From a virus: a stretch of 37,066 nt of DNA. Below the pieces are notes generated by a model. The model saw only the letters and a program-made list of their open reading frames with translations. It had not been told where the DNA came from and did not search any database. Positions 7,560 through 37,066 of this stretch are shown in pieces. Each line of letters starts with the position of its first letter. The stretch's first letter is position 1. The position numbers and the translations under genes are program-made. The stretch is from IMG/VR virus record IMGVR_UViG_3300045996_001975, one strand, 5' to 3'.

Positions 7560-8291
7560 CTACTGCGGTCGCCAGCCGTCGTAAGGACAGTAGAGCACAC
7601 CGCCGGGCCCTTGCCGTAGAGGTTCTCCGTCGTTGGGGCAGGCGATCGCCGCCCGGCCGGATTCCTCCGCCGCGATGGTGCGAGCTTCCTTCACGTAATT
7701 GAGTAACGAGTGCCAGCCGCCCCCGGCCGTGGCCACGACTGCCGCCGAGCCGGTGGCGCGCACCTCGACATCCAGCCCGCCCAGCACCACGCTGATGGCG
7801 CCGGTGAGCGCGTCGCCGATGATCACATCGGCGAAGTAGCAGTTGTCCCCGCCGTCGCCGTTCGGGAAGGCGACGGCCCCGGAGGTAATGAAACGGCCGT
7901 TGACCGCGCCGGCCGAGCCGTTGGCGGGGGCGGTGATGACCCCGTTGACCAGCCCGCCCACGAACAGATCCACCGTGGCCACATAGGCATTGACGGGCCC
8001 GTACGCGCTGACCACCCGGGTTCCCGCGGTAACGAGTGTCGGCGTGTCGTAGAGCGCCACATTCCACGCGCCCACGCTGTTCGCGCCGTACTCCTTGCGC
8101 GCCAGCTCCACGCCGTCGGCCGTCCATAGCAGTTGGTACGGGGTGGTCGACAGTGCCGACGTCGCGGCGAAGCGCCGGCCGCCCAACACGTACACGTCGC
8201 GGGAGAATTCCAACTCAGTGCCCAGGTTGTACGTGTTGTCCGTCTCGTTGGGGAGGGCCGGCTCCTGCGTAGTGAATAGCGTGACGCCCAC
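7560..8291 (-). CDS. Hypothetical virion-region protein (243 aa), possible DUF4082-like N-terminal domain
   Basis: ORF with high GC3. The N terminus (TLFTTQEPALPNETDNTYNLGTELEF...) recalls DUF4082-type domains, but this is from memory only. The C terminus has CPNDG...CPYDG. Confidence 0.5.
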   Translation of the reverse strand: MGVTLFTTQEPALPNETDNTYNLGTELEFSRDVYVLGGRRFAATSALSTTPYQLLWTADGVELARKEYGANSVGAWNVALYDTPTLVTAGTRVVSAYGPVNAYVATVDLFVGGLVNGVITAPANGSAGAVNGRFITSGAVAFPNGDGGDNCYFADVIIGDALTGAISVVLGGLDVEVRATGSAAVVATAGGGWHSLLNYVKEARTIAAEESGRAAIACPNDGEPLRQGPGGVLYCPYDGWRPQ

Positions 8292-18100: not shown

Positions 18101-18129
18101 ATCCTACCGCACCTTCACTGTAATTACAA
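18101..18129 (-). promoter_or_regulatory. Predicted sigma-70-type promoter with a leaderless start (TTGTAA-17-TAGGAT-6-ATG)
   Basis: On the minus strand the sequence is TTGTAAttacagtgaaggtgcggTAGGATtgcgtcATG. The -35 box overlaps the stop of the upstream HTH gene. Confidence 0.45.
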
Positions 18130-18666
18130 CTTGTCGACGTCCACGCCCTCGAGCCGAAGCGTCGCTTTCTCCCCGGCCACGGTGACCTGCACGCGGGACG
18201 GCAGCTGGCCCAGCTCTTCGGCGATCGAGCGCAGGGCCCGGTCCCTGGCCTTCAGTAGCCGCGCGAGAACGTCGCTGGTGTCGGCCGTCAGCATGATGGG
18301 CCCGTCAGGGTGCTCGCCATCGAGCAAGCTGCGCAGCGAGTCGGCGTCGACCATGCGCCCAGTTTCGAGCGCCTCGATCTGATCGTCCAGCAACTCGACG
18401 GCATCCTGGTACGCGGCCACCCGGGCGGTCTTCTTGGCCGCCCAGAGTCCGGCGAACTCATCAGTCATGTCCTCGCGGTAGCGCTGGATCTGCACGCGCC
18501 AGCGCTGCTGGAACTGACTGATAGCCGATTGCGTCACCCCGTACTCAGCCGCCAGCTCGGATTGCGTCTTCTGCCCCAGCGCCAACTCACGCTGTAGCTG
18601 CACGCGCGTGTACGGGCGCGACAGGACGAACCTGACGCGCCCGGCGCGCTCTTCTTTCTCGCTCAC
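18124..18666 (-). CDS. HTH DNA-binding protein, possible terminase small subunit (180 aa)
   Basis: HTH motif KTQSELAAEYGVTQSAISQF followed by a coiled-coil region. It lies upstream of TerL with four or five tiny genes between them. Confidence 0.45.
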   Translation of the reverse strand: MSEKEERAGRVRFVLSRPYTRVQLQRELALGQKTQSELAAEYGVTQSAISQFQQRWRVQIQRYREDMTDEFAGLWAAKKTARVAAYQDAVELLDDQIEALETGRMVDADSLRSLLDGEHPDGPIMLTADTSDVLARLLKARDRALRSIAEELGQLPSRVQVTVAGEKATLRLEGVDVDKL

Positions 18667-21163: not shown

Positions 21164-22891
21164 TCAGCGTGCGTACGAGATGCGCGCGTCCAGCCGCGCG
21201 CTGGCCCTGCGGATCAGGATCGCGTCGTTGACGTCGCCGCACCGCATGTCGGCGGTGACCACGATGCCATGCTCCCGTGCCGTCGCCTTCAGTCGCGCGC
21301 TGGGCTTCTGCTTGCGCCACCGCGCGTCGCGCACCGTCAGCATCTGCTCGTGGCCGGTCACGTTGGCCTCCCCGTAGCTCATCGCATACGACATGTCCTG
21401 CACCCCACGCTCGATACCCCAGGACACACCCGGGGTTGGCGAAGCGCGAATGACCATCCACCCCCCGGTCGGGTCGGGAATGATGGCGATGAGGTCGAGT
21501 CCCGCCGGCAGAAACCAGATGCCGCCATCGGTCTGAAGCCATGCCGCGTGCGAGGTGCCGAACAGGTCGACATACTCCGACACCAGCCGACCATCGCGAT
21601 ACTCCACAATGGAGTCATCTGTCGACTCTCCGTCGACAAGCAGATCGTCCAGCCCCGGCTCGTCCTCGACCAGCAGCCCATCCACCGTGTCGGTAGCTTC
21701 TTCCACGTCGGACAGGTCCAACGCGGCGAGGGAGGCCAGGCGCATCCGCTTGGACACTCCGACGACGTCAAGTACGAGCGCGTTGCGCTTGCCGGGCCAC
21801 GGCCTCAGGACGCGGCCGGCCATCTGGATGTAGAGCCCGCGGCTCTTCGTCGGCCGAGCGATCACGCAGACCTCGGCCATCGGCAAATCGGTACCTTCGG
21901 TCAGAACCATGCAGTTGGTGAGCCACTGGACCTTTCCGGCGCGGAAGGCCTCGAGGGTCGCCCGACGCTCGTCCATCGGCTGCCGGCCCGTCACCACGGC
22001 CGCCGGCAAGCCGGCCTCATTGAGCCGCTGGGCCATCAGTTCGGCGAAGTCGACGGTGGGGGCGAAGAGGATGCCCTGGCGCCCCTCAGCGTGATTCTGG
22101 ATGGCTTCGACGATGCGGTCGGGCGCCATCGAGTCGGTCATCGCCCGACCCAGGTCTCCGTCCGCGAAGTCCCCGCGGCTGCGCTTCACGGTGTCCAGGT
22201 CGAGATCGTCGATCCGAACGTGAATACCTCTCGGCTTGACCAGGTACCCATCGTCGATCAGCGGCTTGATCGGGATCTCAAACGCCAGCTCTTGCCAGAC
22301 GTCGCCGAGCTTCGCGCCGTCGGCCCGCTCCATCGTGGCGGTGACGCCCAGCGCCAACGCCCCGCCGGTCGTGAAGCAGCCCAGCCCTTCCATAACCCTG
22401 CGATAGCTCGGCGCGGTCGCGTGGTGACCCTCATCGACCACCAGTAGCCCGACATTCTTCAGCCGCGCCAGCCGCTTCGGATTGGCCACCGTCTGCACGC
22501 TGGCGTAGACCACCCGGGCGTGCGACTCGTCCCGCCCAGCCGCCACCACACCGGCCCGCAGGTGGGGCGCGACGGAAGCCAGCTTGGCCATCGCCTGCCC
22601 CAGCAGCTCGTCACGGTGGGCCAGCAGGACCGTGCGCCGGCACCCCCGGGCGTGCGCCCGCTCGATCACCGAGGAGAAGATCACCGTCTTGCCGGCCCCC
22701 GTCGGGGCCACCGCCCCGAGCCGCTGCACCCCGCGGTCCCAGCCCGCGAAGACGGAATCCACGGCGTCAGCCTGGTACGGCCGTAGCGCCAGCCCGGTCA
22801 CAGAACCCGCTCGATCCCCGACACCGCGTACCAGCCGGTAGCGCCCCTCCGCCACTCTTCGCCACAGACGGCCACCGCGCACGGCTCCCAT
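21164..22891 (-). CDS. SF2 DEAD/DEAH-type DNA helicase (575 aa as listed; likely start GTG 22801, giving 545 aa)
   Basis: Motifs LRPYQ, APTGAGKT (I), VVDEGHH (II), TATMER (III) and QMAGRVLR (VI). GTG 22801 overlaps the upstream stop as GTGA. Confidence 0.85.
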   Translation of the reverse strand: MGAVRGGRLWRRVAEGRYRLVRGVGDRAGSVTGLALRPYQADAVDSVFAGWDRGVQRLGAVAPTGAGKTVIFSSVIERAHARGCRRTVLLAHRDELLGQAMAKLASVAPHLRAGVVAAGRDESHARVVYASVQTVANPKRLARLKNVGLLVVDEGHHATAPSYRRVMEGLGCFTTGGALALGVTATMERADGAKLGDVWQELAFEIPIKPLIDDGYLVKPRGIHVRIDDLDLDTVKRSRGDFADGDLGRAMTDSMAPDRIVEAIQNHAEGRQGILFAPTVDFAELMAQRLNEAGLPAAVVTGRQPMDERRATLEAFRAGKVQWLTNCMVLTEGTDLPMAEVCVIARPTKSRGLYIQMAGRVLRPWPGKRNALVLDVVGVSKRMRLASLAALDLSDVEEATDTVDGLLVEDEPGLDDLLVDGESTDDSIVEYRDGRLVSEYVDLFGTSHAAWLQTDGGIWFLPAGLDLIAIIPDPTGGWMVIRASPTPGVSWGIERGVQDMSYAMSYGEANVTGHEQMLTVRDARWRKQKPSARLKATAREHGIVVTADMRCGDVNDAILIRRASARLDARISYAR

Positions 22892-23127
22892 AGCGCCTCG
22901 CCATCATGCTCCGGACCATGCTCGCCCTTCCCCGTGCGCACCACCCGACGCCACCCCCCAAGCCGAACGAGAGCTTCGCGGCCACGAGCGATCGTCAGCG
23001 CCTCCATCAACGCTTCCGACATCGAGACTCGCCCGTTCGGCTCTTCGGCCATGCGCTCACCGGTGTAGCGACGCAGATCCGCCGCAGCCTCTTCGGTCAG
23101 TCTGATGCTCGTAAACACCTTCGCCAT
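22798..23127 (-). CDS. Ribbon-helix-helix (CopG/Arc-like) domain protein (109 aa)
   Basis: N terminus VFTSIRLTEEAAADLRRY...VSMSEALMEALTIA fits a beta-alpha-alpha RHH. The gene sits directly downstream of the palindrome array. Confidence 0.55.
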   Translation of the reverse strand: MAKVFTSIRLTEEAAADLRRYTGERMAEEPNGRVSMSEALMEALTIARGREALVRLGGWRRVVRTGKGEHGPEHDGEALWEPCAVAVCGEEWRRGATGWYAVSGIERVL

Positions 23128-23133
23128 GCCACA

Positions 23134-23142
23134 AGTGTAGCA
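23134..23142 (-). promoter_or_regulatory. Extended -10 promoter element TGCTACACT, leaderless (6 nt to ATG 23127)
   Basis: On the minus strand the sequence is ctgTGCTACACTtgtggcATG. There is no good -35 box at 17-18 nt, so the promoter may depend on an activator bound to the upstream palindromes. Confidence 0.4.
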
Positions 23143-23180
23143 CAGTTTTTCTTCTTACCTATCGTCAATCGACCCTCGGC

Positions 23181-23380
23181 GTTCACAGCCTCTGGGTCTC
23201 AGAAACCCAGAGGGCTGTGAACCGTACGCCCTGCTGGTTCACAGCTTGTGAACCGCTGTGAACTTTTTCGCGTTTCCCCTGGTCAGACGTTTTTCGGCTA
23301 GTTCACAGCCTGTGAACGTGAGTGACTTTCGCGTTCACACGGCTTGTGAACTACTGGCCAGTAGTTCACAGCTTGTGAAC
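23181..23380. repeat. Array of five GTTCACA...TGTGAAC palindromes with T-rich spacers (candidate replication origin or operator array)
   Basis: 17-mers GTTCACAGC(C/T)TGTGAAC lie at 23237-23253, 23301-23317 and 23364-23380. A 19-nt variant lies at 23333-23351. A 42-nt hairpin with the same outer arms lies at 23181-22222 shifted, i.e. 23181-23222, and an extra half-site at 23256-23263. A 14-nt palindrome CTACTGGCCAGTAG lies at 23351-23364. T5-T6 runs flank the repeats. Confidence 0.75.
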
Positions 23381-23404
23381 TCACGCTCTGTAGTTTTTTC
23401 GCAT

Positions 23405-25465
23405 TTAAGGAGAGGGGGTCAGCCATGATCCATCTCCGCCCCCGTCGCCGCCGAACCCGGACCATCTGTCGAATTTCGCCTTGTCCGCCCACTTCTGACC
23501 ATTCCGGACAACCAGCCCCTTCTCCAGCAAGCCGCCCATGGTCCCCTCGCGGGTCAGCGCGTAGGTCAACGTCGACTTGCCCATGGGGCCCCGGCCGTGC
23601 GCCTTGCGGAATTCGTTGATCTTGCCGAGGATGACCGACTGCGTCTCCCCTTCGGGTAGGCCGACCTCCCGCAGGACGTGCAGCACTTCAGCCTGTATCT
23701 CGGTGGGGGCGGCCCGGTACTCCATCTCCGGCAGCCGCGCCGGCCCTTCCTGGTCGTACACCAGGGTCAGCGAGGAGCGGGCCCCGTGCGCGTCCGCCGG
23801 CAGCGCCACCACCGTCAGCGCCAGCCCCCACTCCAGGTCGTCGCGGCCGTCCTTGGACTTCTCGCACCGCAGGCGCGCGCGCATCTCGCCCTTCGGCCCG
23901 ATCCGTTCGATCTTCCACTCCATGTCCTGCGCGGCGTCGATGGCGCTGGCGCCCCGGGCGTCGCCGCCCCCGCGCCCCGTGTGGTGCACGACCAGCACGC
24001 AGGCGCCGCACGCCTCCCGGAGCGCGGACACCGCGGCGATCCACTGCCCCATCTGTCCGTTGTCGTTCTCGTTCAGCCCGACCGACAGTCGAGCCTGCGT
24101 GTCCAGGACGACCAACACGGGCCGGTCCTCGGCGGCCAGCTCGATCAGCTCGCGCCACTCCGGCGTCATCGCCACTCCGCCGCCGGCCACCCTGACCGCT
24201 TGCACGGGAAGGGGAAGGATCATCAGCTCGTCCCCGACCGGCCCGTGCCGGCTCTCCCAGGCCTCGATCCGCTGGGCGATGCCGGCCGCCCCCTCGGCGG
24301 CCACGTAGAGCACCACGCCCTGCCGTACCGGCCGGTCGTTCCACAGCTTGCCGGTGGCCACGTGGCAGGCCCAGTCGATGGCCACGAAGCTCTTGCCCGA
24401 CCCGGACGCGCCGATCAGCCACGAGTCGGAGTCGAGGTTGAGCACCCCCTCGATCAGCGGCGCCGGCCGCGGGAGGCGCCCGAGCTCCGAGCGGCGCAGC
24501 AGCTTGCTACGCAGTCCGCCGGACTCCGGTGGTGGCTCGGTAGCCGACGCCGGGAAAGGGGGCACCGCTTGGGGCGGGAGCGCCCCCGGCAGGAACGCCG
24601 CGCGCTGCACGGGCCCCACCGGCTCCACCATCTTGGCCACGCTCTTGACGTCCCACAGCTCAGCCGCCTCGGCCTGACCCAGCCCGGCCCGGGCCAACGC
24701 GTCCAGATAGTGATCCCGGTAGACCTCGGCGTCCACCCCGCCGCCGGCGCACACCTCCCGTATCCGCCGGGCCAGGCGCCACCCCTCATGGTTGCGCCTG
24801 CCCTCGGGCAGCTCGGCCAGCTCGCGCAGCATGCCGCCGACCGCGGCCGCGACATACCCCAGGTTCGGCGCGGCCGGTGCGGCGGGTGCCGGCGCGGTCT
24901 TCGGGGCCGGGCGGATCAGGCTCAAGAGCTGCTCGGCGGGGGCGTACGCGCCCGTCATCATCCCCGGCAGCATGACGTACGGGCCCTTGGCGCTGACGCT
25001 CGGCGGTACCACCACCTGCCCGCCGGTCCCGCGGATGTCGAAACCCGCCGGCAGGCGCCCGGACGAGTTGTTCGGTTCAAAGTCCGTGGGCATCTGGAAG
25101 TACCAGTGATACCCGCCCCCTCCCGTGCGGGTGTGCGGGGGCGGCAGAACGCTTAGGTCAACCGGTCCGGTCGCGTTGGCCGGGTCCCAGTCCAGTACGA
25201 AGATTCCCGACACCGCGCCGGTACGCACCCCCCAGTTGGCGTCCGGGTCTTCGTCGAGCCAGGCTTGCACGTCCGGCCAGCTCGGCGCTGGGCCGCTCTC
25301 CCACCCCGCCCCGACGTTCGGATGCTTGCCGGCGCTCTTGCCGCACTGGGCGCCTCGGCGGCACGTGCAGTGCCCGTCCACGATATGGTGCAAACGCACC
25401 AGGGCCCACCCCCTGGTGTGGTACTCGCGCAGCATGGCCACTACATCTTGTGTATCATCCACCAT
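23405..25465 (-). CDS. Bifunctional primase-polymerase (prim-pol) / AAA (RepA/DnaB-like) replicative protein (686 aa)
   Basis: The N-terminal domain has prim-pol motifs: GKHPNVGAGW, VLDWDP, GGGYHWYF, FDIRGTGGQVVVPPS. The central domain has Walker A GASGSGKS and Walker B VLVVLDT. The C terminus looks like a winged helix. Confidence 0.85.
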   Translation of the reverse strand: MVDDTQDVVAMLREYHTRGWALVRLHHIVDGHCTCRRGAQCGKSAGKHPNVGAGWESGPAPSWPDVQAWLDEDPDANWGVRTGAVSGIFVLDWDPANATGPVDLSVLPPPHTRTGGGGYHWYFQMPTDFEPNNSSGRLPAGFDIRGTGGQVVVPPSVSAKGPYVMLPGMMTGAYAPAEQLLSLIRPAPKTAPAPAAPAAPNLGYVAAAVGGMLRELAELPEGRRNHEGWRLARRIREVCAGGGVDAEVYRDHYLDALARAGLGQAEAAELWDVKSVAKMVEPVGPVQRAAFLPGALPPQAVPPFPASATEPPPESGGLRSKLLRRSELGRLPRPAPLIEGVLNLDSDSWLIGASGSGKSFVAIDWACHVATGKLWNDRPVRQGVVLYVAAEGAAGIAQRIEAWESRHGPVGDELMILPLPVQAVRVAGGGVAMTPEWRELIELAAEDRPVLVVLDTQARLSVGLNENDNGQMGQWIAAVSALREACGACVLVVHHTGRGGGDARGASAIDAAQDMEWKIERIGPKGEMRARLRCEKSKDGRDDLEWGLALTVVALPADAHGARSSLTLVYDQEGPARLPEMEYRAAPTEIQAEVLHVLREVGLPEGETQSVILGKINEFRKAHGRGPMGKSTLTYALTREGTMGGLLEKGLVVRNGQKWADKAKFDRWSGFGGDGGGDGSWLTPSP

Positions 25466-25557: not shown

Positions 25558-25893
25558 TTACCGGGCGGCGGCCTTCGCCTTGCGATTGAGCTTGCGCTCG
25601 GCGGCGGCCAGCTCGGCCGGCTCGCACGCGGCCTCGGCGCGGACCAGCGCCTCATCGACCAGGGTGCGGATGAAGTCGCTGCGCAGTACGCCGCGCACGA
25701 GCGCGACGCGGTCGACGCGCCGGAGGACACTGGGACGAAAGTTGACGGTGGTCTGCGCGGACACCGCCTCGATCCCCGCGTCGCCCAACGCCTTACGACC
25801 CCGGCGCACAGGGGCGGCGACGGGGGCGGGCTCGACGGGAGGGGCGGTGCGCGCCGCGCGCTTGCGCGGCGGCTTCATTGTAGTTTCACTCAT
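25558..25893 (-). CDS. Ribbon-helix-helix DNA-binding protein, candidate early regulator (111 aa from ATG 25893; track start GTG 25902)
   Basis: A basic N-terminal tail is followed by TTVNFRPSVLRRVDRVALVRGVLRSDFIRTLVDEAL (RHH pattern). The gene is divergent from the rightward arm. GTG 25902 would lie inside the predicted -10 box. Confidence 0.6.
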   Translation of the reverse strand: MSETTMKPPRKRAARTAPPVEPAPVAAPVRRGRKALGDAGIEAVSAQTTVNFRPSVLRRVDRVALVRGVLRSDFIRTLVDEALVRAEAACEPAELAAAERKLNRKAKAAAR

Positions 25894-25900
25894 GGTCGAC

Positions 25901-25930
25901 ACGATACCTCAAGGTCAGCACGTGCGGCAA
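25901..25930 (-). promoter_or_regulatory. Leftward promoter of the divergent switch (TTGCCG-18-TATCGT-7-ATG 25893), leaderless
   Basis: On the minus strand the sequence is TTGCCGcacgtgctgaccttgaggTATCGTgtcgaccATG. Confidence 0.45.
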
Positions 25931-25971: not shown

Positions 25972-26238
25972 ATGACGATAGATTACAGGCTGAGTCGCCT
26001 GATCGAGATCGCCGAAGGGGAGCTAGCCCGAACCGGCGGGGATGAGATGCCGGAGGAAACGGCCTACGCCCTGGCGCGTGGCGTCTTCGGGCAGGTCGAG
26101 GGAGCGTCGGAGGTTTACGGCATCTGCTCGGAGCTGGAATCCAACTTCCGGCGATCGCGCGAACTCTGGGACGCGCTGATTCAAGAGGTGCGCGACCGGC
26201 AGGCGCGGTTGCGCCAGATCGGACAGGAGGAATCATGA
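25972..26238 (+). CDS. Hypothetical early protein (88 aa)
   Basis: First gene of the rightward arm. Acidic and helical. Leaderless context. Confidence 0.65.
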   Translation: MTIDYRLSRLIEIAEGELARTGGDEMPEETAYALARGVFGQVEGASEVYGICSELESNFRRSRELWDALIQEVRDRQARLRQIGQEES

Positions 26239-26507: not shown

Positions 26508-26521
26508 GCAAAAGAAAATCA

Positions 26522-26560
26522 CGCGGGGCATTGCACATGCAGTGCCCCGCGTGCTATAGT
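26522..26560 (+). promoter_or_regulatory. Cassette 1: terminator-like hairpin (9-bp stem) with -35 TTGCAC in its loop, plus extended -10 TGCTATAGT
   Basis: cgcggggca (26522-26530) pairs with tgccccgcg (26543-26551). TTGCAC lies at 26531-26536, followed by an 18-nt spacer and TATAGT at 26555-26560. A 36-nt identical copy lies at 27041-27076. Confidence 0.55.
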
Positions 26561-26604
26561 TATCTCATAAGGAAAGAGGTAGCCCGAACCGAGAGGGAGC
26601 AGAA

Positions 26605-26781
26605 ATGATCGAGATGACTGAAACTCAGATGGACGACATGATCAACGCCGAGCGGGACGAAGAGCGGGCGAAGACGGCGGCCGACGTCCTGGCCGCCCTG
26701 AAGGATTTCCTGTCGAGTTGCGAGCCCGGCGAGCGGGCCGGACTGAAGCTGGCGATTCAGATCGTCGAAAGCAACTTCTGA
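26605..26781 (+). CDS. Unlisted micro-ORF (58 aa), MIEMTETQMDDMINAERDEERAKTAADVLAALKDFLSSCEPGERAGLKLAIQIVESNF
   Basis: ATG lies 5 nt after SD GAGAGGGAG in the conserved leader. High GC3. A perfect palindromic terminator follows. It is below the track cutoff, and the track shows only antisense ORFs here. Confidence 0.6.
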   Translation: MIEMTETQMDDMINAERDEERAKTAADVLAALKDFLSSCEPGERAGLKLAIQIVESNF

Positions 26782-26786
26782 GGAAA

Positions 26787-26830
26787 AGAAAGGGAGGGGG
26801 TTGCGCAACCCCCTCCCTTTCTGATACACT
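26787..26830 (+). promoter_or_regulatory. Cassette 2: 36-nt perfect palindrome (terminator) with -35 TTGCGC at its apex, plus extended -10 TGATACACT
   Basis: aagaaagggagggggttgc / gcaaccccctccctttctt spans 26787-26822. TTGCGC lies at 26801-26806, followed by an 18-nt spacer and TACACT at 26825-26830. Confidence 0.6.
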
Positions 26831-26873
26831 GTACTTACAAGGAAAGAGGTAGCCCGAACCGAGAGGGAGCGAA

Positions 26874-27032
26874 ATGATCGAGAACATCAAGCAGGCGAAC
26901 GAGTACTTCGAGGCCGTTGAGGGAACCCCGATGGAGAGGCTGGCGCGGCTGTACATCGCCTCCCCGGCCCTGCGCCGGATTCAGCGGGCCGCCCGGAAGT
27001 ACGAAACTTTCGCTCCCATCAAGCGGGTCTGA
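26874..27032 (+). CDS. Unlisted micro-ORF (52 aa), MIENIKQANEYFEAVEGTPMERLARLYIASPALRRIQRAARKYETFAPIKRV
   Basis: It has the same 32-nt leader and SD as cassette 1 and also starts MIE. The cassette-3 hairpin follows. Confidence 0.55.
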   Translation: MIENIKQANEYFEAVEGTPMERLARLYIASPALRRIQRAARKYETFAPIKRV

Positions 27033-27041
27033 GAAACAGAG

Positions 27042-27080
27042 CGCGGGGCATTGCACATGCAGTGCCCCGCGTGCTACACT
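27042..27080 (+). promoter_or_regulatory. Cassette 3: the cassette-1 hairpin repeated, with -35 TTGCAC in the loop and extended -10 TGCTACACT
   Basis: cgcggggca (27042-27050) pairs with tgccccgcg (27063-27071). TTGCAC lies at 27051-27056 and TACACT at 27075-27080. Confidence 0.55.
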
Positions 27081-27121
27081 TACTTCACAAGACGAGGTAA
27101 CCCGAACCGAGAGGGACTGAG

Positions 27122-27355
27122 ATGAACGAGGTCACCACCGTCAACCGCCGGGCCTACGTCATTGCGCTGGCCACCGACGCGAAGGACGGCAAGCGGCTGG
27201 GCGAGTTCAAGACCACCATGAAGGCCGCCGGGTTCGAGGGCCGCGCTGGTGGATACATCTACGCTCCGGGCGCCGGCAGTCCGATCTGCCAGGGCTGGCG
27301 CAAATTGGCCGAGAGGGTCACCCAGGACCACTCGCTAGTCACGCAGCTCGCCTAG
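27122..27355 (+). CDS. Hypothetical protein (77 aa)
   Basis: Listed ORF. It is preceded by a variant of the conserved leader (..GGTAACCCGAACCGAGAGGGAC..). A 10-bp GC hairpin follows. Confidence 0.65.
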   Translation: MNEVTTVNRRAYVIALATDAKDGKRLGEFKTTMKAAGFEGRAGGYIYAPGAGSPICQGWRKLAERVTQDHSLVTQLA

Positions 27356-34882: not shown

Positions 34883-37066
34883 TTACCTGGCCAGGCGTAG
34901 CGGGTACGCCAGTTGGAAGCTGTCCCCGGCGCTGGCCGCCGCGGCGAAGCCGTTGTGCCCCCGGTCGGCGGTGACTGTCTGCGCGTCACACCGTAGCGCC
35001 ACCACGGCCGCGCGGGAGATAGCGCTCGCGCCACCGGTCACCGCGAACGTGCCGGCCGAGATGTTCACCGCATCGGTCTGTATCTGGTACGCCCAGACGA
35101 TGCCCTGATCGTCGCCGGTGGTGGTGTCCGGCTCGGAGATCTCCGTCCCCGGGCTGGCCACCGATGTCCAGTCGTCTTGCTTCCAGCCGACGTAGAGAAT
35201 CAGCGAGTTGCGCTGCTCCACCCGCAGCGGGGGGTAGGTGATGTCCTGCGCGGACCCGTTGATGGTGGCCGCGAATCCGTGGAAGCAGTTGGCCGCGCTG
35301 TACCACTTGCCCGGCAGGTAGATGATCTGCGCGGTGGTGTCGGCGTTGGCCACGCCGCCGGTGAACGCCACCGACGGGGCGGCTTCGCTGCCGTCGTGGA
35401 TCTTCGCGAAGAGCTGCACGTTGGATGTCGACGGGAAGACGTCGAGCCGCGTCCAGTCGGTGGGCGTGGTGGGCACTCCGGCTCCGCTGTTGCGGATGGC
35501 CGCGAGCAGGACCATCAGGTTGCCCGCCCCCGCCCCCGCTGGGATGGCCGGGGACACGCTCGCGTTCACCCCGTGCGCGACCGTACCGACCCCGCCGAAG
35601 GTGATCGGACTCTCGGCGATGGCAGTCACGCTCATCACCTCGCCGCCGCGCCGGGTCAGCATCGGTTCGACGAATTGCGCGGTGTCGGTAACCCATAGCG
35701 GCCCGGTCGTGGTGGCCACGTCGAAGCTGGTGTCGGCCGAGGTGATGGCCTCGGCGAGCACACTGCCGGCGGTGTCCAGCCGTGAGCGCGCCGCGAGGTC
35801 GAGCTGGCCCACCGTCCAGATGCCGCCCGGCGAAGCGTTCCACCACAGGCCGCCGCTGGACTTGTTGCCCAGCGTCTCGCGCACCCCCTGGATAACCGCA
35901 CTGATGGTGTCGGGCGGGAGCCAGGCCGGCGGGTTGGCGATGGTCACCAGGTCCCCGACGTCGAGCGCGTGCAGGTCCGCGGTCAGCTCGCTGTCCGCGG
36001 TGAACACCGTGCGCGCGCGCTCGATCCCGATGGACGGCCAGCGGTACTCGTCCCACGTACCCTCGTGCAGCCACCATCCCGCCACCCCGGGCAGCTGCTC
36101 GTCGGTGGCGACGTTAACCGTCTGCGGGTACTCGTACACGCCCGCCCCGGCCGGCGGCTGGGCGGTACTGAGCGGGCCGGTCAACTGCTCGGCGGTGTAC
36201 GAGCCGCCGTCCGGGCGGGACGCGATGATCAGGTTGCGCAGTGGTTGATCATCGTCGTTCGGGTCGAACGGTTCGGAGATGTGCTGCTCGTAGTCGAGCT
36301 GCAACCCGGGCTGGTTGTAGAGGCTGATCCGCGTGCGGTACGCCACGCCGAACGCGGCGCGCGGTTCGTAGAGGATGCCGCCGTCGGCCAGCTCGGCGGC
36401 CACCAACAGGTCGATCAACTTGCCTTCGCCCTGCGGCCCCATCGGGGCGGTGTCGCTCAGGTCCCCGACGTTGACCAGGTTCACCCCCTCTTCTTGGCAC
36501 AGGCGTTCGATACGTGCGCCGGCGGTCTCGCCCGCCCAGCCGCTCATCGCCGAAGGCAGGTCGTTGAGCGCGGCCACCGAGTTGGCCACGACGAGATGTC
36601 CAACCACCGTGTCGACCAGCAGCCCGCCGTGGCCAGCGATGACCAGGTGCACCCGGGTGAGGGTCTGCGACGCGAAGGTGCCGCTGAACAGGGTCTCCGT
36701 CAGGGTGCCGTCGCTGGCCGCCCGGGTGGTCTGCACGCCCCAGTCGACCCCCGTGCCGTCCTGAGCCAGGGTGACCGACAACAGGACCGCGCGGTTGCGC
36801 ACGTCGAAGGCGAGAGCGCCGGAGGTGGCCAGCTCGGTGTCGGTCGCGTCGTAGATGTGCAGCGAGAGCTGCCCGCCGGAGCGGTAGCGGATCGCCATGC
36901 GGCGCACGCCCCCGGCGTCGCAGTACCAGTCCGCGAGGACAGCGGTGTCGGTCAGGCCGGCCGCCGGCACATGCAGCAGCATGTGCACCGCGATCTCACC
37001 GTCGAAGTCGTAGGCGTTCACCCCGCCCCGCAGTTCGCCCGCCGTGGTGACCGGCAGGGCGCGGGA
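34883..37066 (-). CDS. Minor tail protein, C-terminal part of the wrap-around ORF (joins 1-1348)
   Basis: The frame is open to the right window edge. The listed start at 37021 is only the first GTG inside the window. Upstream codons (SRALPVTTAGELRGG) continue the frame. The stop TAA lies at 34883-34885. Confidence 0.8.
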   Translation of the reverse strand, partial: SRALPVTTAGELRGGVNAYDFDGEIAVHMLLHVPAAGLTDTAVLADWYCDAGGVRRMAIRYRSGGQLSLHIYDATDTELATSGALAFDVRNRAVLLSVTLAQDGTGVDWGVQTTRAASDGTLTETLFSGTFASQTLTRVHLVIAGHGGLLVDTVVGHLVVANSVAALNDLPSAMSGWAGETAGARIERLCQEEGVNLVNVGDLSDTAPMGPQGEGKLIDLLVAAELADGGILYEPRAAFGVAYRTRISLYNQPGLQLDYEQHISEPFDPNDDDQPLRNLIIASRPDGGSYTAEQLTGPLSTAQPPAGAGVYEYPQTVNVATDEQLPGVAGWWLHEGTWDEYRWPSIGIERARTVFTADSELTADLHALDVGDLVTIANPPAWLPPDTISAVIQGVRETLGNKSSGGLWWNASPGGIWTVGQLDLAARSRLDTAGSVLAEAITSADTSFDVATTTGPLWVTDTAQFVEPMLTRRGGEVMSVTAIAESPITFGGVGTVAHGVNASVSPAIPAGAGAGNLMVLLAAIRNSGAGVPTTPTDWTRLDVFPSTSNVQLFAKIHDGSEAAPSVAFTGGVANADTTAQIIYLPGKWYSAANCFHGFAATINGSAQDITYPPLRVEQRNSLILYVGWKQDDWTSVASPGTEISEPDTTTGDDQGIVWAYQIQTDAVNISAGTFAVTGGASAISRAAVVALRCDAQTVTADRGHNGFAAAASAGDSFQLAYPLRLAR
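36940..37066. repeat. Terminal direct repeat, copy 2 (identical to 1-127)
   Basis: Same 127-nt string as the window start. Confidence 0.95.

Follow-up and report, generated by a model that had tools for sequence, protein, structure and literature searches.

The SaPI origin lies directly 3′ of rep, and the C-terminal winged-helix domain of the initiator binds 6–12 iterons that are opposed around a central AT-rich region; in SaPI5, a primase is fused to Rep (PMC9371898). RSF1010 distributes the work over an iteron-binding recognizer, a RepA-family helicase and an AEP-related primase that starts on the 40-nt inverted repeats ssiA and ssiB after melting (PMC8567376; PMC4234260). In pRN1 (orf56/orf904) and the Bordetella phage BIP-1, a small CopG/RHH-type gene precedes the gene for a PrimPol–helicase–C-terminal winged-helix protein, which is followed, at a distance of no more than about 170 bp, by an essential cis element in the form of a stem–loop (PMC4234260). 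The pRN1 helicase belongs to SF3, and the pRN1 origin, a stem–loop of ~100 nt, is stated to be without iterons (PMC4234260). The multifunctional primase–helicase alpha of P4 binds repeated short origin sites via its C-terminal winged-helix domain (PMC4234260).

We analysed a stretch of viral DNA of 37,066 nucleotides (IMG/VR record IMGVR_UViG_3300045996_001975; the window), which represents a complete, 36.9-kb siphovirus genome with 67.5% GC. Relatives of the phage point to Actinomycetota. An array of GTTCACA heptads lies between a gene for a PrimPol/RepA-like helicase protein and the leaderless promoter of an RHH-like gene, and all genes around it are on the minus strand; an earlier note on this DNA, which placed the array 3′ of the prim-pol gene and 5′ of the RHH promoter, is correct when read in minus-strand orientation. 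We consider the array to be, with a probability of about 0.7, the phage replication origin, of the iteron type, for an all-in-one, self-loading initiator. The elements of the locus are listed below.

25558-25902, minus strand: small gene upstream of the primase–helicase gene; synteny conserved, product weakly CopG/RHH-like
23405-25465, minus strand: replication protein gene (686 aa) with N-terminal PrimPol (AEP primase-polymerase), RepA-like AAA_25 helicase and C-terminal winged-helix domain (the last predicted)
23483-23707, minus strand: predicted C-terminal winged-helix domain (residues 587-661), proposed heptad-binding module
23552-23578, minus strand: predicted recognition helix H3, KSTLTYALT (residues 630-638)
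23364-23380, no strand: palindrome 1, GTTCACA-N3-TGTGAAC, nearest the primase–helicase stop codon
23333-23351, no strand: palindrome 2, the N5 spacing variant GTTCACA-CGGCT-TGTGAAC
23345-23370, no strand: 26-nt palindrome formed by palindromes 1 and 2
23301-23317, no strand: palindrome 3, GTTCACA-N3-TGTGAAC, which ends the six-heptad cluster on the primase side
23264-23300, no strand: central spacer (37 bp, A/T-enriched, 49% GC), proposed melting region, with A5/T5 runs on either side of the conserved box
23278-23286, read on the gene strand: conserved box CTGACCAGG inside the spacer, unique in the window
23237-23263, no strand: three heptads in a 10-bp register, that is, a half-site (23257-23263) and palindrome 4 (23237-23253)
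23181-23222, no strand: 42-nt hairpin/palindrome with inverted copies of the heptad as its outer arms, a candidate structural or priming element
23133-23142, minus strand: extended -10 promoter element TGCTACACTT
22798-23127, minus strand: gene for a 109-aa protein that is RHH-like only in its sequence pattern; a GTGA overlap couples its translation to that of the SF2 helicase gene
21164-22801 (likely span), minus strand: SF2 helicase gene, with SF2 domains by Pfam and the start inferred from a 545-aa homologue in L005

The locus resembles the SaPI origin in its position 3′ of an initiator–helicase gene and in its short, lineage-differing iterons (6–12 in SaPIs) opposed around an AT-rich centre; in SaPIs, the C-terminal winged helix sets specificity. 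It differs in having an AAA_25/RepA-like helicase rather than one of the SF3 or MCM-like class, an AEP PrimPol as primase, and 7-bp repeats that mostly form 7-N3-7 palindromes; moreover, a long hairpin with inverted-repeat flanks and a cross-lineage box are present, and the element is an actinobacterial siphovirus rather than a satellite. Because its helicase is AAA_25 (PF13481) and IncQ RepA-like, the 686-aa protein is not a member of the SaPI Rep/Pri-Rep family, although it appears to work like one. With the IncQ oriV of RSF1010 (RepC, RepA and RepB′), the locus shares the same parts list and a helicase of the same Pfam family (PF13481), but a single polypeptide combines the three activities here, with no separate RepC, and one 42-nt hairpin and the 26-nt palindrome are found as opposed to two ssi hairpins on opposite strands. 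The repeats here are also 7-bp units, mostly in inverted pairs, whereas the RSF1010 iterons are direct repeats of ~20 bp. Like ORF904 of pRN1, the protein combines PrimPol, helicase and a modelled C-terminal winged helix, with the array and hairpin downstream of the gene; unlike in pRN1, the helicase is AAA_25, iterons dominate and the hairpin measures 42 nt. P4 alpha is also a primase–helicase with a C-terminal winged helix and repeated short sites, and the P4 type I iteron (TGTTCACC) resembles GTTCACA. The P4 primase, however, is Toprim-type and its helicase SF3, whereas the primase here is an AEP PrimPol, and P4 needs a second cis site (crr), whereas this genome has no second heptad cluster. 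The layout turns out to be known from other mobile elements and, for the PrimPol/RepA-helicase protein family, to be both widespread and undescribed; our literature search found no described origin for this family.

The heptads are strongly over-represented and concentrated at a single place. The palindrome GTTCACA-N3-TGTGAAC occurs three times in the window (23237-23253, 23301-23317 and 23364-23380) versus 0.06 expected, with 0 of 100 shuffles reaching three copies, and the bare heptad GTTCACA 12 times per 37 kb versus 2.7 expected (shuffle maximum, 6). Eleven of these 12 heptads are confined to 23181-23380, 25-224 nt 3′ of the primase–helicase stop codon; the remaining one stands alone elsewhere in the genome, where a further cluster did not appear even with one mismatch allowed. 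The repeat inventory of the earlier note (three perfect 17-mers, an N5 (+2) variant, a half-site, the 26-nt palindrome and the 42-nt hairpin) was recovered in full, as were the T5-T6 runs in the array. The spacings also hold, as the coordinates place the site centres 43.5, 64, 33 and 30 bp apart; since these distances deviate from integral helical turns by up to about 1.5 bp, the phasing of the sites is only loose, and the whole-turn argument built on it is weak. The 300 bp at 23112-23411 are the lowest-GC stretch of the genome (0.507 versus a mean of 0.675). GC skew, which follows gene orientation, gave no origin signal and is uninformative because transcription strand bias dominates. On inspection, the spacings fit neither a LexA box (GAAC-N4-GTTC) nor a CRP site (TGTGA-N6-TCACA).

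Six heptads proximal to the gene and five distal ones enclose the 37-bp spacer, and the heptads that flank the spacer read in opposite directions ('<' then '>'), a layout that is also found in L007, L091 and L092. The spacer is AT-rich only in relative terms (49% GC versus 67.5% for the genome). The arrays of L008, L010, L031, L091 and L092 use different repeats and also contain the box CTGACCAGG of this spacer, in unchanged orientation and at 60-150 nt past the stop codon. The design of the distal end, a hairpin whose outer arms are the lineage-specific repeat, 32-42 nt apart, is common to L003, L005, L007, L008, L010, L013, L091 and L092. Rfam returned no RNA family match in the array region. 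A candidate ECF-type promoter in the spacer (GGAAAC-N18-GTT) was dropped, as it is not conserved in L008.

The 686-aa protein matched PF09250 (1e-23; residues 14-169) and PF13481 (5.7e-40; residues 327-500) in Pfam. In plasmids, tblastn with the protein found genes annotated 'helicase RepA family' (IncQ-type), which match its helicase part and to which it is 32-37% identical, including records of 7.8-9.2 kb; matches there were helicase-only or PrimPol-only, and no full-length homologue was detected. The exact protein sequence is not on record, and a megablast search of the INPHARED phages with a 5-kb query around the array gave no match. For the C-terminal domain, neither Pfam (no meaningful match) nor a database of 5.8 billion proteins (no match at E <= 1e-3) returned a relative, and the matches to PDB sequences (LexA, H1, Zur and MCM4 winged helices) were weak and insignificant. 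Structure prediction confidently gives the domain a winged-helix fold: the AlphaFold2 model from a 28-sequence alignment (pLDDT 91.6, pTM 0.81) has the topology H-b-H-H-b-b, and its best Foldseek matches are almost all winged-helix domains (TM 0.55-0.69, but all with E >= 0.06). Within the family alignment, variability is highest in the H3 region. An earlier model from a 12-sequence alignment (pLDDT 65.6, with uninformative Foldseek results) was superseded by the 28-sequence model.

Relatives share a synteny in which a small RHH-like gene is followed by the PrimPol–helicase gene and a non-coding gap of 270-540 bp, and each gap carries its own repeat (ATCCGTGCA, ATTGTCAT (in L005), ATGACGACA, TCCGCACA, GTGACACA and others). 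Defining an array as at least six copies of one 7-mer within 500 bp past the primase–helicase stop codon, we found arrays 3′ of the homologous gene at 51 of 81 viral loci versus 17 of 1860 control windows, and at 30 of 73 independent loci in bacterial genomes versus 13 of 1252 controls; about 40-60% of the relatives have no array at this threshold of six or more copies. The earlier note looked to related genomes for the motif, and what recurs there is the position of the array and not the repeat sequence, which is lineage-specific. Loci with the same repeat have similar C-termini (L044/47/49, L027/29, L028/30 and L008/L091). A global Mantel/Spearman comparison of repeat similarity with C-terminal or helicase identity across 46 lineages gave no significant correlation (rho about 0.02); as unrelated pairs swamp the signal in such a test, support for co-variation is drawn from close pairs only.

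Two natural cassette swaps bear on which protein domain goes with the repeats. In the first (L045 versus L049), 6.8 kb of DNA align at 89-92% identity, apart from about 370 bp that correspond to the last ~95 codons of the primase–helicase gene and the array. Identity is 99% between the helicase domains and 19% between the C-terminal domains, TCCGACA replaces CGGGACA as the repeat at collinear positions, and the inner stem–loop ATCCCTTTAGGGAT is unchanged. In the second (the window versus L005), homology covers 26551-24520 and sets in again at 23144, where the downstream promoter lies, so that helicase, winged helix and array are all replaced together (identities of 85% for the PrimPol domain and 40% for the helicase, with a C-terminus that cannot be aligned). 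At the level of these alignments, the swaps show that the repeats track the C-terminal domain of the primase–helicase (in the second swap, the helicase and C-terminal domains), and not PrimPol or the flanking RHH-like proteins. From the two swaps we infer that the C-terminal winged helix probably sets repeat specificity. The DNA for the winged-helix domain lies next to the array, and the second swap moves the helicase domain too; because of this adjacency, one recombination event could swap domain and array without a functional link.

The family-wide 3′ arrays, the cassette swaps and the winged-helix model together support both the origin and the C-terminal wHTH of the primase as its probable binder, a role for which that domain had already been named as a possibility. 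That no phage protein can be assigned to the motif from sequence alone, as the earlier note held, is right for the window by itself and ceases to apply once relatives are compared.

Heptad binding, melting, loading, priming and origin activity are all steps that we infer. In the proposed mechanism, the C-terminal winged-helix domain of the PrimPol/RepA-helicase protein would bind the GTTCACA heptads, with the 6 + 5 opposed heptads around the 37-bp A-rich spacer receiving the protein. Multimeric binding, plausibly of one hexamer per side, would melt the spacer, in the least stable part of the genome; the helicase domain would then load itself and the fused PrimPol domain would make the first primers. 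Priming may use the extruded 42-nt hairpin with its heptad arms in the manner of an ssi signal.

More tentatively, and at slightly less than even odds, we suggest that the array exemplifies a widespread, previously undescribed class of origin for all-in-one PrimPol/RepA-helicase/winged-helix initiators. Such origins would comprise lineage-specific heptad-to-nonamer repeats that are exchanged with the winged-helix domain as a specificity cassette, a central melting spacer with the cross-lineage box CTGACCAGG, and a hairpin with a pyrimidine-rich 5′ arm, a TTTA-type loop and inverted-repeat flanks that would act as an ssi-like priming signal for the fused AEP primase. The class would range over actinobacterial phages and prophages, with more distant relatives in Proteobacteria and Planctomycetes, and, if real, would amount to the IncQ initiation pathway with its three proteins merged into a single one. 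If the assignment of the array is true, origins could be predicted from sequence alone in many actinobacterial phages and prophages, among them those of Streptomyces, Micromonospora, Mycobacterium and Segniliparus. The initiator gene with its ~250-bp array would then be a small candidate replicon on which vectors for high-GC Gram-positive bacteria could be based, and the natural winged-helix/repeat swaps may provide a ready set of orthogonal initiator–origin pairs and a readable protein–DNA recognition code. The hairpin and the conserved box offer testable hypotheses on the start site of an AEP PrimPol at the origin of a bacterial virus.

Downstream of the array, the extended -10 promoter proposed in the earlier note is borne out by the pattern TGCTAYASTT, of which the window holds three copies versus 0.01 expected. 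The end of the -10 hexamer lies 6 nt upstream of the start codon (ATG, 23127), and the transcript is therefore predicted to be leaderless; L005 and L007 have a TAnnnT hexamer at the corresponding positions, 7-9 nt before the start codon. A sigma-70 promoter consensus scan made no detection in the region, the promoter at 23133-23142 included. The 109-aa RHH-like protein had no Pfam, PHROG or PDB match, and its TSIRLTEEAAA strand is identical in the L005 homologue. Profile searches with the product of the upstream gene (25558-25902) gave CopG (1b01 and 2cpg) at E = 0.38 and phrog_4738 ('transcriptional repressor') at 0.0015.

We regard it as unlikely that the array is instead a transcriptional control region, in which the heptads would be operators or an upstream activating array for the leaderless RHH/SF2-helicase promoter, or insulation against read-through, and the regulator would be an RHH-like protein or the primase–helicase itself. 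The array lies directly between two transcription units and ends about 54 nt upstream of the supported promoter, yet no heptad overlaps the -10 element or the start (the nearest ends at about -54 from the leaderless start), and the two other TGCTAYASTT promoters have no heptads. Of the two readings in the earlier note, the activator–operator array is disfavoured by this distance, and the origin is the one upheld by the comparative evidence, the swaps and the winged-helix model. Palindromic 7-N3-7 sites are typical of dimeric regulators, but both RHH-like proteins, which had been put forward as binders, keep identical predicted DNA-reading strands in L005 (QTTVNFRPS in the upstream protein and TSIRLTEE in the downstream one) despite entirely different repeats (GTTCACA versus ATTGTCAT), which argues against them. 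Strong hairpins could serve as U-less terminators, although a consensus scan of the array region found no intrinsic terminator. Also in favour of this reading, iteron-binding initiators often autoregulate. The homology between the window and L005, however, resumes exactly at the promoter, and the array therefore belongs to the upstream module; in L008, L091 and L092, where the following gene is encoded on the other strand, the array likewise stays 3′ of the primase–helicase gene.

Far less probable is a partition (centromere) or packaging recognition site, bound by an RHH-type centromere-binding protein or the small terminase. The RHH centromere-binding proteins omega and ParG do bind arrays of 7-bp heptads, direct and inverted, but the 32 ORFs scanned, a subset of those in the window, contain no ParA/ParB-type ATPase, integrase or plasmid–prophage module, and it is the primase–helicase C-terminus, not the RHH-like proteins, with which the array co-varies. 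The terminase gene has a gene for an HTH protein beside it (18124-18666), although the terminase genes are about 5 kb from the array.

Least probable of all are non-functional repeats, a recombination scar or a selfish palindromic family, in an intergenic gap: such gaps tolerate repeats and palindromes can grow by slippage, but dozens of distant lineages have comparable arrays at this position, each with its own sequence, the remainder of the genome is practically free of the motif, and the array is better conserved than the flanking genes in a comparison with L001. Against this 95%-identical relative, identity is 98.2% for the non-coding array, 97.9% for the DNA that encodes the winged helix and 91-96% for the flanking genes (P(<=5 mismatches) = 0.003), a pattern that shows purifying selection on the spacer DNA.

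The window begins and ends with the same 127 nt (1–127 = 36940–37066), as is typical of circular assembly with k = 127, and is thus the complete genome, 36,939 bp in length, of a siphovirus. The terminase, portal, protease, major capsid and tape-measure proteins are all encoded on the minus strand, as is every gene around the array of GTTCACA heptads (23181–23380):

25465 to 23405, minus strand: primase-helicase gene, 686 aa, PrimPol (PF09250) and AAA_25/RepA-like helicase (PF13481)
277 bp between the primase-helicase gene and the 109-aa gene: non-coding gap holding the array
23127 to 22798, minus strand: 109-aa RHH-like gene, next after the 277-bp gap
after the 109-aa gene, minus strand: SF2 helicase gene

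The 109-aa gene ends in a stop codon that shares bases with a GTG (GTGA, 22798–22801), and the SF2 helicase start is therefore probably 22801 (545 aa, as in the relative L005), not the longest-ORF start at 22891.

The description of the gap in the earlier note was correct. GTTCACA-N3-TGTGAAC occurs three times (0.06 expected). The N5 variant and the additional half-site were recovered, as were the palindrome of 26 nt and the 42-nt hairpin that has heptads as arms; the proposed spacing of centres by whole helical turns holds only approximately. Eleven of the 12 heptads in the genome (2.7 expected genome-wide) lie within 23181–23380, and the 200–300 bp around the array have the lowest GC content of the genome (0.50–0.51 versus 0.675). 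Counted from the primase-helicase stop codon along the gene strand (> and <, the two orientations), heptads start at 25>, 35<, 54>, 66<, 88> and 98< and, beyond a 37-bp spacer, at 142>, 152>, 162<, 183> and 218<. Six heptads (three palindromes) thus lie on one side of the spacer and five on the other, those bordering it being in mutually opposite orientations, and 183> and 218< form the outer arms of the 42-nt hairpin. The spacer (TAGCCGAAAAACGTCTGACCAGGGGAAACGCGAAAAA; 49% GC) has A5 runs around CTGACCAGG.

No close relative was found among isolated phages; in IMG/VR, a single genome (L001) reached 95% identity and many others were distant, and protein searches recovered graded relatives (63–30% identity). 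Relatives retain the order small RHH-like gene, PrimPol-helicase, gap of 270–540 bp, small gene and SF2 helicase, and RusA. Each gap inspected holds its own short-repeat array, with repeats in both orientations:

L003: ATCCGTGCA
L005: ATTGTCAT
L007: ATGACGACA
L008 and L091: TCCGCACA
L092: TTCGCACA
L010: GTGACACA

Scoring the commonest 7-mer within 500 bp 3′ of the stop codon, with a threshold of six copies, identified arrays at 51 of 81 non-redundant viral loci (against 17 of 1860 windows taken from these loci as controls) and, in an independent set, at 30 of 73 bacterial-genome loci (13 of 1252 control windows). Most of the relatives in bacterial genomes belong to the Actinomycetota (for example, Segniliparus, Streptomyces, Micromonospora and Mycobacterium), and some to the Proteobacteria and Planctomycetes. 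Given these counts, the array is a family-wide property of the 3′ flank of the primase-helicase gene and not a quirk of the window phage. By our own tally of a consensus list of 46 lineages, about half of the repeats end in ACA and most others in NCA (GTTCACA, CCGCACA, TGACACA, CGGGACA, TGCAACA and others), which may point to a conserved contact, or to a TGT/GTG template for priming, inside otherwise variable repeats. In the distant relative L004, ten tandem ~60-bp units (7566–8171) just 3′ of the helicase gene are probably a coding repeat.

Three candidate readers of the repeats are encoded near the array: the upstream and downstream RHH-like proteins and the primase-helicase C terminus. Between the window and L005, DNA homology (75–78%) extends from 26551 as far as 24520 and is picked up again at 23144, precisely where the downstream promoter lies, to continue through the RHH and SF2 genes, with no alignable DNA between 24520 and 23144. 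Protein identity is 85% in the PrimPol domain, 81% in the linker and 40% in the helicase, and the C termini are unalignable. The small upstream proteins share 70% identity and the same QTTVNFRPS strand, and the TSIRLTEEAAA strand of the downstream RHH-like protein is likewise unchanged; the repeats differ (GTTCACA versus ATTGTCAT). On this pattern, the repeats travel with the helicase and C-terminus block and independently of the PrimPol domain, both small proteins and the promoter.

A second pair, L045 and L049, is 89–92% identical over 6.8 kb except for one segment:

L045 4812–5175 versus L049 4809–5184: replaced cassette, ~370 bp, clean boundaries

The cassette consists of the final ~95 codons of the primase-helicase gene together with the ~125-bp array. 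Identity is 99% between the helicase domains and 19% between the C termini, and the repeats (CGGGACA versus TCCGACA) are collinear in position; the hairpin keeps its inner stem-loop (ATCCCTTTAGGGAT) within the swapped segment. Among loci, a common repeat goes with similar C termini, a link that draws on close pairs; a global Mantel test was not significant across 46 mostly unrelated lineages, in which both similarity measures are at noise level. Since the domain adjoins the array, one recombination event would be expected to co-transfer both even without function. Pure hitch-hiking seems the poorer explanation, because the swap boundaries match the domain boundary and the array end and the hairpin core is kept inside the swapped segment. 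In L008, L091 and L092, the array still lies 3′ of the primase-helicase gene although the gene that follows is encoded on the other strand.

We favour, with a probability of roughly 0.7, an iteron-type origin bound by the C-terminal winged helix of the primase-helicase. The alternative offered in the earlier note, an operator or activator array, would act on the downstream promoter:

~40 nt beyond the last heptad pair: extended −10 element TGCTACACTT, hexamer ending 6 nt before the ATG

This hexamer position predicts a leaderless transcript, and the three copies of TGCTAYASTT in the genome (0.01 expected) support a genuine promoter type of the window phage; no sigma-70 −35/−10 consensus, intrinsic terminator or Rfam family was detected in the array region. 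An operator or activator function is disfavoured by the position of the array, by RHH strands that are invariant while the repeats differ and by the module boundary at the promoter, although initiator binding may have a secondary regulatory or insulating role. A partition site is opposed by the failure to find ParA or ParB among the ORFs scanned, and a packaging site by the distance of the terminase genes from the array. Junk repeats are excluded by the family-wide locus counts and by the comparison with L001, in which DNA identity is 94.7% overall, 91–96% in neighbouring coding regions, 97.9% in the winged-helix coding DNA and 98.2% in the non-coding gap (5 mismatches in 277 bp; P = 0.003 under the average rate). 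None of the five mismatches hits a heptad, which alone is not significant.

The C-terminal domain (residues 587–661) was modelled with AlphaFold2 from an alignment of 28 sequences gathered by a local iterative profile search (pLDDT 91.6, pTM 0.81). The modelled topology, H1-b-H2-H3-b-b, is the winged-helix pattern, and H3 (residues 630–638, KSTLTYALT) falls at the segment of the family alignment that varies most. Foldseek returned no match at E ≤ 1e-3; the top matches, all above this value, were almost all winged-helix domains (TM 0.55–0.69; cullin WHB, Fur/PerR, LmrR, Sso10a, MCM4, Cdc6 and Z-alpha), and sequence-level matches to the LexA, H1, Zur and MCM4 winged helices were insignificant. 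The model supports a winged-helix fold, and we infer that this domain binds the repeats.

Other elements are conserved where the repeats are not. The box CTGACCAGG (gene strand; CCTGGTCAG on the plus strand) lies at the centre of the array (23278–23286), is unique in the genome and recurs mid-array in the same orientation in L008, L010, L031, L091 and L092 despite different repeats. Downstream of PrimPol-helicase genes (L003–L172 flanks), 74 hairpins have a pyrimidine-rich 5′ arm and 17 a purine-rich one; control windows gave 128 and 108, so the excess is not general to hairpins of these loci. Typical forms have a TTTA or TTAG loop (CCCCC-TTTA-GGGGG, CTCTCTC-TTAG-GAGAGAG), as exemplified by:

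L013 227–248: pyrimidine-arm hairpin
L055 76–93: pyrimidine-arm hairpin
L092 210–241: pyrimidine-arm hairpin
L141 55–78: pyrimidine-arm hairpin

Such hairpins are common even in distant Proteobacteria and Planctomycetes loci, and the window hairpin (inner arm CTCTGGGT) is an atypical member. The obvious candidates for reading the box and hairpins are a host factor and a region of the protein that is itself conserved, such as the PrimPol or helicase domain.

Self-loading initiators with a C-terminal winged helix are well known to have iterons beside their genes, and an origin assignment would not surprise a specialist; the value of the finding lies in how broad the family is, in its naturally occurring cassettes for specificity and in the additional conserved elements. 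Our literature search found no origin described for PrimPol/AAA_25 proteins of actinobacterial phages. The SaPI origin sits immediately downstream of rep, its 6–12 short iterons are recognized by a C-terminal winged-helix domain and lie in opposite directions on each side of a central AT-rich region, and one hexamer is proposed to load per side (PMC9371898). The window array reproduces this published layout, with the modelled winged helix as the putative reader of the repeats, whereas the protein chemistry is closer to that of IncQ plasmids (RepA-family helicase and AEP-type primase). In RSF1010, RepB′ primes, starting at a GTG, on two 40-nt inverted repeats exposed once RepC and RepA open the origin (PMC8567376). 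In pRN1, a CopG-like gene precedes the PrimPol/helicase/winged-helix gene and a stem-loop just downstream of the latter is used, as has also been suggested for Bordetella phage BIP-1 (PMC4234260). From these parallels we infer, beyond the sequence anatomy and co-variation, an order of events in which winged-helix domains would dock on the heptads, the spacer would melt, the helicase would self-load and the fused PrimPol would prime, perhaps on the hairpin, which has TGTG in its 3′ arm.

Further repeats occur elsewhere in the window. A 30-nt GC-rich palindrome (CGCGGGGCATTGCA..TGCAGTGCCCCGCG) is present in two copies (26520–26561 and 27042–27081, plus strand), both directly adjoining the extended −10 motif (TGCTATAGTT / TGCTACACTT) that also precedes the RHH-like gene; together they look like a repeated promoter-operator or terminator-promoter cassette of a divergent early module. 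A perfect 36-nt palindrome between plus-strand genes (26787–26822; AGAAAGGGAGGGGGTTGC/GCAACCCCCTCCCTTTCT) might terminate transcription in both directions. Four small plus-strand genes are each preceded by a copy of a conserved leader, GAGGTAGCCCGAACCGAGAGGGAGC..ATG:

26020–26047, plus strand: leader copy
26576–26619, plus strand: leader copy
26846–26889, plus strand: leader copy
27094–27137, plus strand: leader copy

The leader may serve these genes as a common 5′ UTR or translation signal, and L005 carries three comparable copies of ~90 bp.
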